64,000 bases of DNA from a virus (lineage: Duplodnaviria > Caudoviricetes). The translations under genes were made by a program, and so were the position numbers. Shown here in pieces: positions 1,241 through 13,224 of the stretch (the first letter of the stretch is position 1; each line of letters opens with the position of its first letter). The notes beneath the pieces are model-generated. The model ran no database searches, was not told where the DNA came from, and was given only the letters and a program-made list of their open reading frames with translations. The DNA lies in the IMG/VR virus record IMGVR_UViG_3300033073_000160, positions 32,001 to 96,000 of that record; one strand, written 5' to 3'.

Positions 1241-1585
1241 ATGCGTATCACAGAATTAGTAGAAAATATAGATTTAGAGCTAGATAAAAAAGACGGATTA
1301 GACTTCGATCTAGTTGACGATCTATTCTTTTATATGAATCACGACGATGACACTTATCGTCGCCACACGTATCCAAGCATTGTAAAATATAAAAAAGCAA
1401 GAACTAACGGTGACGATACTGATCATTTATTGTTTGGATCAGCTGTTACAAACGCATACAAGAAATACTGCGAAGAATTTAAAGAAAAGCGATTACCTGA
1501 AAAGTTACCGCGTGATGTTTTAAATAAAATTTGCCATAAGCTTCATACTGAAGAAGGCAACAATATAGACGACGGTGCTTATTAA
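1241..1585 (+). CDS. hypothetical protein with MRITELVE N-terminus (putative head-internal protein)
   Basis: ATG at 1241 preferred over TTG at 1217; N-terminus shared with neighbouring ORFs. Confidence 0.7.
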   Translation: MRITELVENIDLELDKKDGLDFDLVDDLFFYMNHDDDTYRRHTYPSIVKYKKARTNGDDTDHLLFGSAVTNAYKKYCEEFKEKRLPEKLPRDVLNKICHKLHTEEGNNIDDGAY

Positions 1586-2811
1586 TGCGTTTAAGAGAAC
1601 TTTTTTCCTTAATGGAAGCTAAGAAGGATGCAGGCAATGATGTCGGCATGGAAAAATACGGCCGTCCATTTAATCACCCAGAACATTTAGTCTTCTTTAA
1701 AGGCTCAGAGGGAACACTTGAAGCATTAAACCACTTTAAAGAAATTGCTGCTGAAAAAGCAGGCTCTACTAGCATCCGTCGTAAATGGGACGGCAATCCC
1801 CAAGTATACTGGGGTAGAGAAACAAAAGGTGGTCCACTAATCTTAGCAGGACACAATCAATGGAGCAGAGGTGTTAAAGCAACTAGCGCTGAACAAGTAT
1901 ACGACTTTATTGCAAATCAAAGTGGCAAACCTCCTAAGAACGTTGATGAGCAACGAGCTCGTCAAGCGTTTGCACAAAACTTTTCTAACCTATATCCACT
2001 ATTTGATGCAGCTACGCCTAAAGACTTTGTAGGCTACGTCTATGCAGATAGTTTATACGGTGTTGATCCTAGCCTAAACAAAAAGTTAGGTGGTGCTAGT
2101 AAAGAATATCCTAAGGGCATATGGACGTTTTGTCCTAACCCTAATAGTAATACTTGTTATCACGTAGATGCAGCAAGTGAACTAGGTCAAAGAATTGCAC
2201 AGGCTAAAGTTATGGTCGTCGGTCATGCAACCTTTGATACGTTTGGTGCACCAGATAGAGAACAACAACCCCTTGACGACTTCGAAATGTTTAATCAAAC
2301 TCCTGGTTTGATTGTTCAAGGTCCAATCTATACAGATGAAGCCCCTGGCATAGATTTAACACCAGTTGACGAAATGATAAAATATGTCAATCAACACGGT
2401 GCTGCTATAGATGGATTTATGAGTAGTTTACCTGATCCTGATAAGAATGGTATTTTTTATCCATTCTTTAATAGCATGAGTGGTTCACACGCAAGAGGCG
2501 AAGCAGACTTTAATGCAATCTCAGGACATACATTTATGGACTGGATGACAAAGAAAGGTGTTAGTCCAAAGAAACAACAACATATTGTTGATATGATTCA
2601 GCAATACCCCGGCGGGTTAGATGCTATATTCTTTTTAATTAAAGGTATACGCAACATGAAGGATCAACTTGATGCTGCAATTAAACAGCAACCACGTAAG
2701 GAAATTTGGGATACTAACGGAGAAGGACACGTTCGTTATCCGCAGGCTCATCACAAATTTGGTGCAATGAAATTTGTTCCAACTACTTGGGCACCAGGAA
2801 GAAAAGAATGA
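1585..2811 (+). CDS. KxDG-motif ligase/nucleotidyltransferase-like protein
   Basis: HPEHLVF and RKWDGNP motifs (motif I KxDG of ATP-dependent ligases); N-terminus MRLRELF. Confidence 0.55.
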   Translation: MRLRELFSLMEAKKDAGNDVGMEKYGRPFNHPEHLVFFKGSEGTLEALNHFKEIAAEKAGSTSIRRKWDGNPQVYWGRETKGGPLILAGHNQWSRGVKATSAEQVYDFIANQSGKPPKNVDEQRARQAFAQNFSNLYPLFDAATPKDFVGYVYADSLYGVDPSLNKKLGGASKEYPKGIWTFCPNPNSNTCYHVDAASELGQRIAQAKVMVVGHATFDTFGAPDREQQPLDDFEMFNQTPGLIVQGPIYTDEAPGIDLTPVDEMIKYVNQHGAAIDGFMSSLPDPDKNGIFYPFFNSMSGSHARGEADFNAISGHTFMDWMTKKGVSPKKQQHIVDMIQQYPGGLDAIFFLIKGIRNMKDQLDAAIKQQPRKEIWDTNGEGHVRYPQAHHKFGAMKFVPTTWAPGRKE

Positions 2812-4793
2812 AATTAAGACAATTATTCAACACTAGACAAAACGAATCAGTTGCATCGGCTGCAATCGGCGGTGCAATTGGAAGAGAAGTCGGTAAAGAA
2901 GCTGGTAAAGAAGCCGGGAAGGTTGCAGGTAAAGTTGCAGGTAAAGAAGCCGGCACAATGTCAAAGACAGTATCTAGGGCAAAAACTATAGCAGGGGCAG
3001 ATACTCTTAGTAAAGAAAAAGAAAAAAATAGCACATCGATTGGTGTCTGCTTTGGTCGTTGGAATCCTCCCCACAAAGGGCATCGTGCTGCTTGGGAAAT
3101 TGCAGCAAGGAATGATACATTCTATGTTGGCACTAATAAGAATACAGAAGGCCCGAATGATCCGTTACCTTATGATGTAAAACTAAGTTGCATGGAAACA
3201 ATTTGGCCTGAGATTAAAGGGCACGTTGTTCCCGAACAAAGTTTGTTTACCCTAGCATCTAAAGTATATGCTAAACACGGCGAAGACGTTCATTTAAAAG
3301 TAGCAACAGACGAAGATTGGTTAACTAGCTCTCTTGTTAAGTATAACGGTGTAGCAGGTGCGCACGGCTTCTACAAGTTTGCTAGTATTGAGCAAGTTCC
3401 AACACCTCGACTAAGTAGTGCAACACAACTACGTGCGGCAGTTCGTGCAGGTGACAGAGATGCGTTTGCAGAAGCAGCAGGTGTTGATGCAAACACACCA
3501 ATTCGTGTTGGTGCAAAAGCAGTTCCGTTCTTTGATCTAGTTGCACACTATCTTGCTAAACATCCTGAAAAAGTTAAGAAGGTTAAGAAAGTAGACGAAG
3601 TAACTCCGGTGCAACCTGCCTCAGTTCCTGTTCCAGCACTACCAGCTGACCAAAGGCCTTATCAAGGAAGCTGGGCTAAGGTAGTGCCTAATAAAGATAT
3701 CGGGTTTGATGTTGTAGACTTTGACGGGAATGTTTCGTTAAAAGGTGCAAAATTAGCTGATGCAAATGCTGAAGCAAAGATTGTTGATAAAGAAATCGGT
3801 AAAGTTGCAATAGAACTAGGGTCATCGATTCGAGTAGATGAACATAAGAAAGGTGTTCGTGCAATGAAATATACTAAGAAGCCAGTTAATCCTTCTGCAC
3901 AACATCAAAAAGCAAAGGAAAAGTTTCAGCCGATTAAGCCAGGTGTTGAAAAGCAAACTGACGAATGTGCAGGCGTTGGAACTATTACAAAACAAAATTC
4001 AACTGCCGATGTAAACAAAGGCACGCCTTATAAGAATCTAAAAGCCTTTAATTTAGTTAAGGAAGGTCGTGCAAATACAAAGGCAGTTAGAACAGGATTG
4101 TCAAAGCGTGAAAAGAAAGCAGATCCAACTATGGATGCAAAGAAACAATCGGAGCAGGATGCCGCTTGGGAACGTTTACAAGCACACATGAATAAGCCAG
4201 AAAATATGGATGTGTTGAAACGTCTAGCAACTAAAGAAGGCATTTTCGATAGTAAACCTAAAGTAGACTTCAAATCTCGTGCTAAAGAGTTGTTTGCTAA
4301 AGGATTAACAGAACAACAAGTATTACAGCAATTAATCAAAGAAGGTTGCCCGCCAAATCAAGCGGCTGTATTTGTGCAAGGAGCACAATTAGAAGAATCC
4401 TCACTAGACACTTATATGGCAGAAAGAGCAGCGTATCTTGCAGAAACTGGCATGAAAAAGATTGACAAAGCTGCTAAAGGCGCTATGAAAAATGCGTCGA
4501 CGTTACCAGCATTGAACCAATCAACTGGTAGTGCTTATATGAATTATCGCATGAGTATTGCACTAGCAGGTGCTCCCGATTATCCTACAAAGATGGAAGC
4601 AGACAACTGGATCGGCGGTGACCCATTATTGTCTACATATACTGAAGAAGAGTTTGAAATGATTAAAAAAGCAGCGCAACAAGTTGGCGCTGGCACTATT
4701 CAAAACTGGTCAGGTAAGCGTAGTCAAGAAATGGCAGATGTTAATAAGACCAGTGCGGTTGCAAAGATTAAACGTAACAAATACGGTGTGTAA
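2808..4793 (+). CDS. cytidylyltransferase-like (HxGH) nucleotidyltransferase with a long modular C-terminal extension
   Basis: FGRWNPPHKGH, NDPLPYDVK and SSATQLR motifs; ATG at 2808 overlaps the upstream stop (ATGA). Confidence 0.75.
   Translation: MKLRQLFNTRQNESVASAAIGGAIGREVGKEAGKEAGKVAGKVAGKEAGTMSKTVSRAKTIAGADTLSKEKEKNSTSIGVCFGRWNPPHKGHRAAWEIAARNDTFYVGTNKNTEGPNDPLPYDVKLSCMETIWPEIKGHVVPEQSLFTLASKVYAKHGEDVHLKVATDEDWLTSSLVKYNGVAGAHGFYKFASIEQVPTPRLSSATQLRAAVRAGDRDAFAEAAGVDANTPIRVGAKAVPFFDLVAHYLAKHPEKVKKVKKVDEVTPVQPASVPVPALPADQRPYQGSWAKVVPNKDIGFDVVDFDGNVSLKGAKLADANAEAKIVDKEIGKVAIELGSSIRVDEHKKGVRAMKYTKKPVNPSAQHQKAKEKFQPIKPGVEKQTDECAGVGTITKQNSTADVNKGTPYKNLKAFNLVKEGRANTKAVRTGLSKREKKADPTMDAKKQSEQDAAWERLQAHMNKPENMDVLKRLATKEGIFDSKPKVDFKSRAKELFAKGLTEQQVLQQLIKEGCPPNQAAVFVQGAQLEESSLDTYMAERAAYLAETGMKKIDKAAKGAMKNASTLPALNQSTGSAYMNYRMSIALAGAPDYPTKMEADNWIGGDPLLSTYTEEEFEMIKKAAQQVGAGTIQNWSGKRSQEMADVNKTSAVAKIKRNKYGV
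2885..2955 (+). repeat. degenerate 12-bp coding tandem repeat (GKEA/GKVA)
   Basis: ggtaaagaagct/ggtaaagaagcc/ggtaaagttgca units. Confidence 0.7.
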
Positions 4794-9937: not shown

Positions 9938-10195
9938 ATGTCTGGACGTAGTTACGGAGCCGAAGAAAAGGCAAAATTAGAAAGATTAATTAGCGAAGGT
10001 TCTACTGTATTGAGAGAAGTAGAAGACTTGCAAGAAGGGTTAAAAGAAACTGTTAAGGCAGTTGCAGAAGAGCTTCAAATTAAACCAAGCGTTATTAACA
10101 AAGCAATTAAGATTGCCCACAAAGGCGATTGGGCTGCTTACAACGAAGATTGGGAAGAGATTGAAGCTATCTTAGATATTACTAAACGCATATAA
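9938..10195 (+). CDS. small dsDNA-binding protein (T4 DsbA/GapR-like)
   Basis: 85-aa helical protein with an LKE..K.VAEEL.IKPSVINKAIKIAHK pattern; recognised by eye only. Confidence 0.5.
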   Translation: MSGRSYGAEEKAKLERLISEGSTVLREVEDLQEGLKETVKAVAEELQIKPSVINKAIKIAHKGDWAAYNEDWEEIEAILDITKRI

Positions 10196-10491
10196 TGATT
10201 GACACTATCTTTGGGCCAACTATACAATGGATAAAAGATGATTGGGCATCTAACCGTTTACGTTTTATTATTGAGCTCCTTGCTTGGGCTATCTCAATTG
10301 GATGTAGCATCACAATGGCGGTCACGGTTCCCAATCCTCCACTCCTTGCTCTATATCCTATTTGGATCACTGGTTGTGCTATGTATGCTTGGGCTGCTTG
10401 GACTCGTAAATCTTTTGGCATGCTCGCTAATTACATTCTGCTCACCACAATTGATAGTGTTGGGCTGGTAAGGATGCTAAATAATTTATAA
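10195..10491 (+). CDS. small membrane protein (about 3 transmembrane helices)
   Basis: Three hydrophobic segments in 98 aa. Confidence 0.7.
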   Translation: MIDTIFGPTIQWIKDDWASNRLRFIIELLAWAISIGCSITMAVTVPNPPLLALYPIWITGCAMYAWAAWTRKSFGMLANYILLTTIDSVGLVRMLNNL

Positions 10492-10500
10492 GAAAGGTAA

Positions 10501-10545
10501 GCGGGCCATAAACCGCAATGTGGTATTTGCAAGCCATAAATTGCA
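10501..10545 (+). promoter_or_regulatory. tandem RNA hairpins with identical GCCAUAAA loops, putative translational operator of the DNA polymerase gene
   Basis: gcgg-gccataaa-ccgc (10501-10516) and tgcaa-gccataaa-ttgca (10528-10545), directly before AGGAG and the TTG start. Confidence 0.7.
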
Positions 10546-10557
10546 TAGGAGAAAAAT

Positions 10558-13224
10558 TTGAGTTACGTTGACGCATGGTTCAACCGCGATGACGATGTCA
10601 TCAAGATTGTTGAACGCAATAAAAAAGGTGAACGTGAATACAGGGACATCCCCGTAAAGCACACGTTTTACTACAAAGACCCAAAGGGCAAACACCAATC
10701 AATTTACGGAGATCCACTTAGCAGGATTGTCTGTAAAAACACAAAAGAACTACGCAAAGAACAAGCTATCAATTCAGGTAAGCAATTATTTGAAGCTGAT
10801 ATCAATCCGATCTTTGTTTGCTTGTCAGAAAACTATCTTAATCAAGATGCACCAAAACTCAATGTAGCGTTTTGGGATATTGAGGTGGACTTTGATCCAG
10901 AACGTGGCTACGCATCGCCGGATGATGCGTTCATGCCAATTACTGCGATTGCTGTTCACCTACAATGGTTAGACACCCTAGTTTGTTTGGCAGTTCCGCC
11001 AAAAACTATGACTATGGACCAAGCTAAAGAAGCTGTTGCAGAATTTCCTAATACATATTTGTTTGAAAAAGAATCGGACATGTTAGACATGTTCTTAGAT
11101 TTGATTCAAGATGCAGATATCTTAAGTGGTTGGAACAGCGAAGGCTTTGATATGCCGTATACTGTCAACCGCATTACAAAATCACTAAGCAAAGAAGATA
11201 CACGTAGACTATGCTTGTTTGACCAATTTCCTAAGAAACGTGAATACGAAAAGTTTGGTCGCGAGTCAGTTACATACGATCTAGTAGGTCGTGTCCATTT
11301 AGATAGTTTAGAGTTGTATCGCAAATACACATACGAAGAACGACATAGCTATCGACTAGACGCTATTGCAGAATACGAACTAAACGAACGTAAGACGCCA
11401 TACGAAGGATCGCTAGATCAACTATACAATCATGATTTTAAAAAGTTTATTGAATATAACAGACAAGATACTGCGCTGTTGGATAAACTAGATAAAAAGC
11501 TAAAGTTTATTGACCTTGCTAATACGCTGGCACACGAATGCACAGTATTGCTACAAACTACAATGGGCGCTGTTGCCGTTACTGAGCAAGCTATTATTAA
11601 CGAAGCGCATCGTAGAGGATTTCAAGTTCCCAACAGAACTAAAATGGACGATCGAGAAAGCAGCCAGGCGGCAGGTGCTTATGTTGCTTACCCTAAAGAA
11701 GGCATTCACGACTGGATTGGTTCGTTAGATATTAACAGTCTTTATCCGTCAGCTATTCGTGCCCTTAACATGGGGCCAGAAACTATTATTGGTCAGCTAC
11801 GGCCTTCAATGACTGAAGAATACATTCAAGGACAAATGGCTAAAGGCAAATCATTTGCGGCAGCATGGGAAGGTATATTTGGCTCATTAGAGTATACTGC
11901 TGTTATGAATCAAGAAATTGGAACAGAAATTACCATTGACTGGGAAGACGGTTCTAGTGATATGTTGAGTGCCGCAGAAGTATACAGGTTAATCTTTGAA
12001 AGTAATCAGCCGTGGGTAATCAGTGCTAATGGCACTATCTTTACATATGAAAAAGAAGGTATTATTCCCGGATTGCTAAAGCGTTGGTATGCAGAACGTA
12101 AAGAAATGCAGGCCAAACTCAAAGACGCTATTAAAGCAGGTAATAAGATTGAAGAAGAATACTGGGACAAGCGTCAATTGGTTAAGAAGATTAACCTAAA
12201 TAGTTTGTATGGTGCTATTCTTAACCCTGGATGCAGATTCTTTGATAATAGGATCGGACAATCAACTACGCTAACCGGTCGTCAGATTGCAAAGCATATG
12301 GCTGGAAAGGTCAATGAGATCATCACCGGAGAGTTTAATCACGTAGGTAAAGCTATTATTTACGGTGATACTGACTCTTGTTATTTTAGTGCATACAAAA
12401 CATTGCAGAAAGAAATTGATAGCGGGCAATTACCCTGGACTAAAGAAAGTGTTGTTCAACTCTATGACCAGATTGGAGAAGAAGTAAATCAAACTTTCCC
12501 ACAGTTTATGTTAGATGCTTTCCACTGTCCAAAGAGTCGCGGCGAAGTTATCAAAGCAGGACGTGAAATCGTTGGCTCAAAAGCATTGTTCATTACTAAG
12601 AAGCGTTATGCTGTTCTTTACTATGATAAAGAAGGCAAGCGTAGTGACGTAGATGGCAAGCCAGGTAAGATCAAAGCCATGGGTCTTGACCTAAAGCGTA
12701 GTGATACGCCTGAGTTTATCCAAAACTTCTTAAGTGATGTTCTTGAAATGGTGTTAACTGGTAAGACTGAAGAAGAAGTCCTTGATCATATTAGCGAGTT
12801 TAGACTAAAGTTTAAGAGTAGACCGGGTTGGGAGAAAGGTTCCCCGAAACGTGCTAATAAGATTACTGAATACGAAGCTAAAGAAAAGAAAGCAGGTAAG
12901 GCAAATATGCCCGGACATGTTCGTGCTAGCATTAATTGGAATACATTAAAGCGAATGATGAACGACAAATACTCAATGAGTGTTACTGATGGCGCTAAAG
13001 TTATTGTTTGCAAACTTAAACCTAATCCTATCGGGTTTACGTCAGTTGCATATCCGGTAGACGAATTGCGATTGCCGCAATGGTTTAAAGATCTTCCGTT
13101 TGACCATGCAGAAATGGAGCAAACTATTATCGACAACAAGTTAGATAACTTGATCGGTGTATTGAAGTGGGACGTTACTAGCACAGAGGAGAAGAACACT
13201 TTTAATAGCTTGTTCGAGTTCTAA
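10558..13224 (+). CDS. family B DNA polymerase with 3'-5' exonuclease
   Basis: DIEVD, GWNSEGFD, YNRQD (exonuclease); DINSLYPS, KINLNSLYG, YGDTDS, KKRY (polymerase); TTG start with AGGAG SD. Confidence 0.97.
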   Translation: MSYVDAWFNRDDDVIKIVERNKKGEREYRDIPVKHTFYYKDPKGKHQSIYGDPLSRIVCKNTKELRKEQAINSGKQLFEADINPIFVCLSENYLNQDAPKLNVAFWDIEVDFDPERGYASPDDAFMPITAIAVHLQWLDTLVCLAVPPKTMTMDQAKEAVAEFPNTYLFEKESDMLDMFLDLIQDADILSGWNSEGFDMPYTVNRITKSLSKEDTRRLCLFDQFPKKREYEKFGRESVTYDLVGRVHLDSLELYRKYTYEERHSYRLDAIAEYELNERKTPYEGSLDQLYNHDFKKFIEYNRQDTALLDKLDKKLKFIDLANTLAHECTVLLQTTMGAVAVTEQAIINEAHRRGFQVPNRTKMDDRESSQAAGAYVAYPKEGIHDWIGSLDINSLYPSAIRALNMGPETIIGQLRPSMTEEYIQGQMAKGKSFAAAWEGIFGSLEYTAVMNQEIGTEITIDWEDGSSDMLSAAEVYRLIFESNQPWVISANGTIFTYEKEGIIPGLLKRWYAERKEMQAKLKDAIKAGNKIEEEYWDKRQLVKKINLNSLYGAILNPGCRFFDNRIGQSTTLTGRQIAKHMAGKVNEIITGEFNHVGKAIIYGDTDSCYFSAYKTLQKEIDSGQLPWTKESVVQLYDQIGEEVNQTFPQFMLDAFHCPKSRGEVIKAGREIVGSKALFITKKRYAVLYYDKEGKRSDVDGKPGKIKAMGLDLKRSDTPEFIQNFLSDVLEMVLTGKTEEEVLDHISEFRLKFKSRPGWEKGSPKRANKITEYEAKEKKAGKANMPGHVRASINWNTLKRMMNDKYSMSVTDGAKVIVCKLKPNPIGFTSVAYPVDELRLPQWFKDLPFDHAEMEQTIIDNKLDNLIGVLKWDVTSTEEKNTFNSLFEF

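Follow-up and report, generated by a model that had tools for sequence, protein, structure and literature searches.

The DNA analysed here (the window) is a stretch of 64,000 nucleotides from a virus (Duplodnaviria; Caudoviricetes) and forms part of a 115,909-bp viral record (IMG/VR record IMGVR_UViG_3300033073_000160). It carries polB, the gene of a family-B DNA polymerase, and this report deals with a structured RNA element in the 5' leader of that gene. The element consists of two tandem units, each containing a hairpin, and ends directly before the Shine-Dalgarno (SD) sequence of polB (Table 1). An earlier reading of the window (the original prediction) had described two stems of divergent sequence which close the same 8-nt loop, the second one ending one nucleotide 5' of AGGAG and being followed by the UUG start of a polymerase gene; it had proposed that these twin hairpins are an autoregulatory RNA operator. 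Both hairpins were found exactly where it had placed them, SD sequence and UUG codon follow at 10546-10560, and the open reading frame (ORF) of 888 codons matches Pfam DNA_pol_B. A spacer of 11 nt separates hairpin 1 from hairpin 2, and six bases lie between AGGAG and the TTG at 10558.

Table 1. Features of the polB leader and of the neighbouring genes in the window
Feature	Positions	Strand	Basis
Complete element: tandem pair of hairpin/pseudoknot units in the 5' leader of polB	10496..10545	+	covariance model, 157 distinct leaders
GGU, proposed 5' strand of S1, unit 1; partner GCC 10505-10507; linker AA 10499-10500	10496..10498	+	
Hairpin 1: GCGG 10501-10504 / loop GCCAUAAA (DNA GCCATAAA) 10505-10512 / CCGC 10513-10516	10501..10516	+	
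GGU, proposed 5' strand of S1, unit 2; partner GCC 10533-10535; linker AUU 10525-10527	10522..10524	+	
Hairpin 2: UGCAA 10528-10532 / loop GCCAUAAA (DNA GCCATAAA) 10533-10540 / UUGCA 10541-10545	10528..10545	+	
SD sequence AGGAG, 1 nt (U/T 10546) past hairpin 2	10547..10551	+	
polB, family-B DNA polymerase, 888 amino acids, TTG start at 10558	10558..13224	+	Pfam DNA_pol_B, DNA_pol_B_exo1
dsbA-like gene, 85 amino acids	9938..10195	+	weak Pfam Phage_DsbA match; phrog_639 transcriptional regulator; synteny
ORF of 98 amino acids, located between the dsbA-like gene and the element; found in some relatives only	10195..10491	+	

Judged from this single sequence, the twin hairpins are not beyond chance. 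The 8-mer of the loops occurs four times in the window, where 3.3 occurrences are expected, which is no excess over chance, and in the minimum-energy fold of the leader the pairing UGUGGU/GCCAUA displaces the second stem. Single-sequence statistics of this kind, the 8-mer count as well as the z-score of the fold given below, are uninformative by themselves.

Relatives were collected in three ways. A search of IMG/VR with the polymerase protein alone gave 80 loci (82-93% identity), and in 79 of them both hairpins are visible directly 5' of polB. In the 80th locus (L070), the covariance model locates the element about 100 nt upstream of polB, before a small inserted ORF; it is thus present in 80 of 80 polymerase-selected relatives. 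A second polymerase-selected set comprised 53 loci around L112, whose polymerase is 71% identical to that of the window. Here, the twin element was detected in 36 loci and a one-unit variant in 12 (11 at E ≤ 1; L241 has the same leader as L238), and the element is absent from five loci of more distant clades (L242, L243, L250, L262/263, and L266). Finally, scanning for a pattern anchored on unit 2 yielded 120 further loci, all of which have polB, or an insert and then polB, downstream. In total, 157 distinct leaders were gathered. Among cultured phages, those closest to the window are jumbo phages whose polymerases are only 43-51% identical (Sinorhizobium phage Phosso, Agrobacterium phage Atu_ph07, and the 121Q/PBECO4 group). 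The element was found in none of the cultured distant relatives Phosso, Atu_ph07, 121Q, and Vibrio phage 2.275.O (polymerases 42-51% identical), nor in T4. Note that the polymerase of Atu_ph07 (L082, 1501-4470) is annotated as two adjacent coding sequences (1501-3198 and 3217-4470).

The stems were assessed in a MAFFT alignment of 58 distinct leaders, which were picked by polymerase similarity only. In both stems, 92.1% of the cells are paired; sliding the 3' partners by 1-3 columns lowers this to 16-38%. The covariation score reaches 0.494, versus at most 0.13 for the slid controls and 0.187 for shuffles, and covariation in both stems was seen in a wider set of leaders as well. Changes on both sides were observed in seven of the ten stem pairs, among them all five aligned pairs of stem 1. 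The sequence of stem 1 is nearly free (GCGG, GGCAG, GATCA, GCTG, GCGA, AAACG, TTTCG, GTCC, GATTG, ACTCA, and others). Stem 2 is 99.3% paired and retains its outer U-A and G-C and its inner A-U pair; its two middle pairs covary (CG 34, UA 22 and AU 29, CG 21, GC 7, respectively). The loop consensus of both hairpins is GCC-NN-AA-N. In hairpin 1, loop positions 4-5 usually read AU and position 8 is variable; in hairpin 2, positions 4-5 are free. Additionally, the GGU-RUU 5' of stem 2 is almost invariant in the polymerase-selected leaders, and the two modules keep a constrained spacing of about 26-30 nt.

A comparison of polB leaders from related phages had been suggested in the original prediction; it shows that the stems compensate, the element is strand-specific, and the loop consensus is shared. 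Conservation of the loop among relatives, on which that prediction had staked its case, was found in the form of GCC-NN-AA-N. Its observation of identical 8-nt loops has to be narrowed accordingly: the consensus is common to both hairpins, whereas the full identity at 8 of 8 positions is particular to this genome and partly a coincidence, because only GCC-NN-AA-N is conserved. We are nearly certain that the leader element is a functional, strand-specific structured RNA; that it is real emerges from the comparison among relatives and not from the window alone.

A scan of 2 kb with Rfam 15 gave no match at the site at E ≤ 10. With the isolated 111 nt, the sole match was a spurious one to CRISPR-DR47 (12.6 bits), and preQ1-I/II/III, SAM/SAH, and other riboswitches remained unmatched. 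Full-text literature searches brought up no description of the element. Judged by its sequence, the element is a structured leader RNA missing from Rfam; its layout is of a known sort, the RNA itself is new.

A further conserved feature indicates how each unit is folded. Each stem is preceded, at a distance of 2-3 nt on its 5' side, by a GGY triplet that is as well conserved as the loop and complementary to the loop GCC. Because this triplet is out of register in both the MAFFT and the covariance model alignments, the proposed pairing was counted on a gapless subset and by script. In unit 1, it is found in 152 of 154 parsed leaders, as GGT/GCC (120), GGC/GCC (26), or AGT/GCT (6). In a gapless alignment of 61 sequences, the three pairs of this helix (S1) of unit 1 are 99.5% paired; the outer pair changes from G-C to A-U by a double change, and the inner pair alternates between U.G and C-G. 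AGU and GCU always occur together, and neither change is found alone in any leader. The stems of the six AGU/GCU leaders are unrelated (GATCA or AATCA in L078, L111, and L167; GTCG in L223, L225, and L227), and L078, L111, and L167 are not mutual nearest relatives by polymerase sequence. This points to an AGU/GCU change that arose more than once, with recombination of leaders as an alternative.

The resulting module has an S1 of 3 bp, an L1 of 2-3 nt, an S2 of 4-5 bp, no L2 (0 nt), and a 5-nt, A-rich L3 with AA at its end. As judged from established pseudoknot geometry, an L1 of 2-3 nt crossing the deep groove of S2 (4-5 bp) and an L3 of 5 nt crossing the shallow groove of S1 (3 bp) are sterically compatible. 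Thus, each unit is probably an H-type pseudoknot of about 25 nt; for unit 2, we infer this fold by likeness to unit 1. An S1 longer than 3 bp was considered and rejected: in both units, loop position 4 is not associated with the base that precedes GGY, and the two bases of the next pair out are likewise unassociated. Pairing across the units, i.e. of the unit 2 GGU with the GCC of loop 1, was set aside, as it leaves the AGU 5' of unit 1 unexplained and has poor geometry. The pseudoknot also affects an argument of the original prediction, according to which divergent stems with an identical loop are the mark of a protein-bound motif. Divergent, compensating stems and a common loop were indeed observed, but the loop GCC would be conserved at least partly because it is paired with the upstream GGY, which offers an alternative to a free loop being recognised by a protein.

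Each genome has a single copy of the element. In the window, the covariance model (CM R1) matches with 88.3 bits at 10486-10565, and the next match has 12 bits. Searches with the twin model covered 183 loci, which gave one strong match each, and five large relatives, which likewise gave one match each; among the latter is a complete genome of 372 kb that has terminal repeats. The single-unit model found the polB leader only, both in the window's record and in four relatives including the complete G001. A single-unit look-alike outside the window (G000:C1:6727-6751, minus strand; GGTAT-ATTTG-GCCACAAA-CAAGT, 13.9 bits, E 0.39) is located away from start codons and is probably due to chance. Hairpins were also scanned for throughout the window's own record (116 kb), where nothing else rose above chance. 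The occurrence as a single copy therefore argues for a gene-specific mechanism.

Moreover, the element always heads the polB operon and is closely tied to the ribosome-binding site. Hairpin 2 stops 0-4 nt before the SD core in 153 of 162 distinct leaders, and 10-18 nt separate its 3' end from the start codon. The start codon of polB is ATG in 119 and TTG in 35 of the 155 leaders with a recognised start. The position beside the SD sequence therefore favours a control of translation initiation, and we infer that the element quite probably acts at this step.

Natural variants allow the constant parts of this arrangement to be told from the variable ones. In five loci (L104, L105, L121, L096, and L070), a cysteine-rich ORF of 61-70 amino acids lies between element and polB; in the first four of these, its stop codon overlaps the polB start (ATGA). 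The ORF belongs to no Pfam or PHROG family; an example is L105:2039-2227 (minus strand), MEEF..CTECIRPE.C..RCECS.... A different insert at the same place, a moron of 203-204 amino acids, is present in L177 (2817-3431, minus strand) and in L238-L241 (L238:893-1504, plus strand); that of L238 overlaps the polB start (ATGA). The L177 moron matches phrog_2954, which is annotated as 'ferrochelatase', and has motifs resembling those of 2-oxoglutarate oxygenases. With any such insert, the element stays beside the first SD sequence of the operon.

Other variants concern the number of units. In L119:87-167 (minus strand), a terminator-like hairpin followed by T7 replaces unit 1, and unit 2 and polB are kept. 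One clade retains a single unit, which directly abuts AGGAG in L244, L246, and L258. This one-unit variant reads GGT-TA-GTTG-GCCACAAG-CAAC and is preceded by an unrelated hairpin (L244:1430-1500, L238:840-892). The one-unit forms show a module that is apparently able to act singly. Together with L119, they therefore indicate that the module, and not the pair, is the basic part, and that its constant partner is the ribosome-binding site heading the polB operon.

Upstream of the element, most relatives have the dsbA-like gene of 85 amino acids directly adjacent, and the element fills the intergenic region of about 85 nt. The order of dsbA-like gene and polB, seen in the window (9938-10195) and in L081 and L083, extends to Sinorhizobium phage Phosso and Vibrio phage 2.275.O. 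About a dozen leaders (L003-L005, L013-L022, L053, L055) contain, as read by eye, an extended -10 box TGnTATAAT 5-6 nt 5' of the first GGY; in those leaders, the fold may therefore begin the transcript. In the window, a sigma-70 scan detected no full promoter directly upstream of the element, where only TTATAAG is present; note that the scanner missed the extended -10 boxes of the relatives. A near-consensus sigma-70-like site (TTGACA, 18 nt, TACAAT; 11 of 12 positions) is located at 10199-10228 on the plus strand, at the start of the ORF of 98 amino acids. The RNA-seq data covered comprise Logan contigs of relatives at small share. One of these contigs spans the junction of upstream gene and leader, and a second one starts near 10489; neither of them can mark a transcript start.

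The obvious system for comparison is gene 43 of phage T4, whose product gp43 is a DNA polymerase and an autogenous translational repressor acting via a leader hairpin (PMC3014915). In this review, such control of a replicative polymerase is documented for T4, RB69, and RB49 only; the T4-type operator is a single hairpin, and its complex with the protein has never been solved (PMC3014915). In the T4 gene 43 leader, as read from NC_000866, TATAAT is followed after 6 nt by AGCCU[AAUAACUC]GGGCU and, after another 7 nt, by AAGGA and AUG. The layout claimed in the original prediction does resemble this one: a -10 box (in some relatives), a stem of 5 bp with a loop of 8 nt (together 18 nt in T4), the SD sequence, and the start codon of a family-B replicative polymerase gene come in the same order, the structure lies just 5' of the SD sequence, and adenines are conserved towards the 3' side of the loop.

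In other respects the two systems differ. Here, two modules (one in some clades) take the place of one, the loop is GCC-NN-AA-N instead of AAUAACUC with its UAAC, and the hairpin is 0-4 nt from the SD sequence rather than 7 nt as in T4. The core of the gp43 operator loop is UAAC in T4 and RB69, which have an identical hairpin top, or UAAA in RB49 (PMC3014915). UAAA does occur in the loops of the window, but hairpin 2 does not conserve position 5, and a gp43-type loop core is not found. There is evidence for a pseudoknot here and, according to the review, none for gene 43 (PMC3014915). CM R1 has no match on the T4 gene 43 leader, which thus has no sequence or structure homology to the element. 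The proposal of a duplicated T4-type operator has to be dropped for these reasons, i.e. the differing loops and the missing match. As far as the sequences tell, the element is a second, independent RNA solution at a polymerase gene.

We favour the following reading. The element would be a cis-acting leader RNA of the polB operon, made of two tandem copies of one module, in which GGY, a linker of 2-3 nt, a stem of 4-5 bp, the 8-nt loop GCC-NN-AA-N, and the return strand follow each other. In each module, the loop GCC would pair with the upstream GGY to form a compact H-type pseudoknot. By binding or stabilising the folded modules, a factor would block the access of the 30S subunit to the adjacent SD sequence, and this would limit the synthesis of the polymerase and of those genes which are translationally coupled to the first cistron. 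We assign a probability of roughly one half to the element being such a protein-bound translational operator. Since a complete relative of 372 kb contains no second copy of the element, the most economical factor would be encoded in the operon itself and would be PolB, just as gp43 is the factor for T4 gene 43; by this analogy PolB itself is the leading, still tentative, candidate for the binding protein, i.e. for autoregulation.

Several observations weigh against this reading. The folding energy of the window leader is no better than that of shuffles (z = 0.47, 91-nt fold). Two of the 154 parsed leaders break the unit 1 pairing (one GGT/TCC and one TGT/GCC). The covariation that speaks for the pseudoknot comprises one pair type in six leaders and perhaps only two events, and the GGU/GCC of unit 2 has the same layout with zero variation and is hence uninformative on pairing. 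In L177, polB keeps its own AGGAG and TTG, and an operator at the first cistron could not directly occlude this SD sequence, because it is located 630 nt downstream of the element. The conserved S1 pairs and the adenines of L3 can be explained by the fold alone, with no protein involved. Finally, some T4-related polymerases do not autoregulate (PMC3014915).

The last but one of these points leads to an explanation that does without any factor. Located at the transcript's 5' end or close to it, the two compact folds would guard the mRNA from 5'-end-dependent decay, or would tune ribosome loading as an insulator or enhancer. The pseudoknot fold itself accounts for most conserved bases; the extended -10 boxes just before the first GGY are in line with this idea, as is the fact that the element remains promoter-proximal when genes are inserted before polB. 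However, a mere stabiliser needs neither a doubled module nor the constant linker and closing pairs of unit 2 (GGURUUUG..A), and the tight spacing to the SD sequence would be needless. Moreover, the window has no clear -10 box at this place, so a 5'-terminal position is not general. We consider a leader of this type unlikely.

Equally unlikely, in our opinion, is an operator for a protein other than PolB, e.g. another replisome protein or a small RNA-binding protein of the phage, which would be dimeric or bind cooperatively to the two modules. Two equivalent modules at constrained spacing (about 26-30 nt) would suit such a protein, and pseudoknots do serve as operators in other systems. In T4, T2, and RB69, an H-type pseudoknot in the 5' leader of gene 32, again a replication gene of a phage, is used for autogenous translational control (PMC3014915). 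That gene codes for a protein that binds single-stranded DNA, and its single, larger pseudoknot is far from the ribosome-binding site, with an unstructured A/U-rich tract between them, whereas here two units of about 25 nt abut the SD sequence. The leader of the E. coli rpmI-rplT operon, in which L20 represses its own synthesis, likewise contains two adjacent sites, one of them a pseudoknot, as described in PMC1888825. The L20 sites are dissimilar and mimic rRNA; in contrast, the element has two copies of one module, and its binding partner is putative.

What speaks against another protein is that one site per genome is unusual for a dedicated regulator encoded elsewhere, and that no candidate gene visibly co-varies with the presence of the element. 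No member of the RegA family (PF01818) was detected in G000-G003, of which G001 is complete, in a search that had no positive control. In addition, RegA-type operators are many, unstructured, A/U-rich, and placed over start codons, unlike the structured, single-copy element.

An improbable alternative is a tandem small riboswitch. Each mini-pseudoknot would bind a metabolite, such as a nucleotide or a 7-deazaguanine precursor, and would thus couple polymerase synthesis to precursor supply. Tandem arrangements are known for some riboswitch classes. The topology is that of small translational riboswitches (preQ1-I, SAM/SAH, guanidine-III), which also combine a compact H-type fold and an A-rich third loop directly upstream of the SD sequence, and dpdA-like matches are present downstream of polB. 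Unlike in these riboswitches, S1 has only 3 bp, the SD sequence is outside the fold, and the absence of L2 leaves no obvious pocket between the helices. The Rfam search of the isolated 111 nt at E ≤ 10, which included the preQ1 classes, argues in the same direction. Furthermore, the element has a single gene context and never precedes any gene operon other than that of polB, and the L214 clade has the element with neither a clamp nor a dpdA homologue within 1.5 kb downstream.

A signal at the level of DNA (a promoter or operator for a DNA-binding protein, an origin, or a single-stranded DNA hairpin) would fit the intergenic site and the -10 box that is also there in some relatives, but arms that vary with compensation around a conserved asymmetric loop are the opposite of a palindromic double-stranded site, the element is without exception found on the coding strand and linked to the SD sequence, and a chance resemblance is excluded by the conservation in 157 distinct leaders, which makes this explanation hardly credible.

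The polB leader element is well suited to binding, structural, and reporter work, since it offers over 150 natural variants, shows clear covariation and a probable pseudoknot, and exists naturally in one- and two-unit forms. At its most far-reaching, and this is speculative, it may represent an undescribed class of autoregulatory operators in a large uncultivated clade of jumbo phages, namely tandem pseudoknots of about 25 nt which are recognised by a family-B polymerase, maybe as a mimic of a primer-template junction, or else the smallest tandem pseudoknot riboswitch so far. In the former case, the element would set polymerase levels; in the latter, replication would be tied to precursor supply. 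If nothing binds to it, the element nevertheless adds a structured leader motif that is new, abundant in aquatic-type jumbo phages, and missing from Rfam. If PolB binds it, the recognition of a polymerase mRNA by its own product would be a case of convergent evolution.

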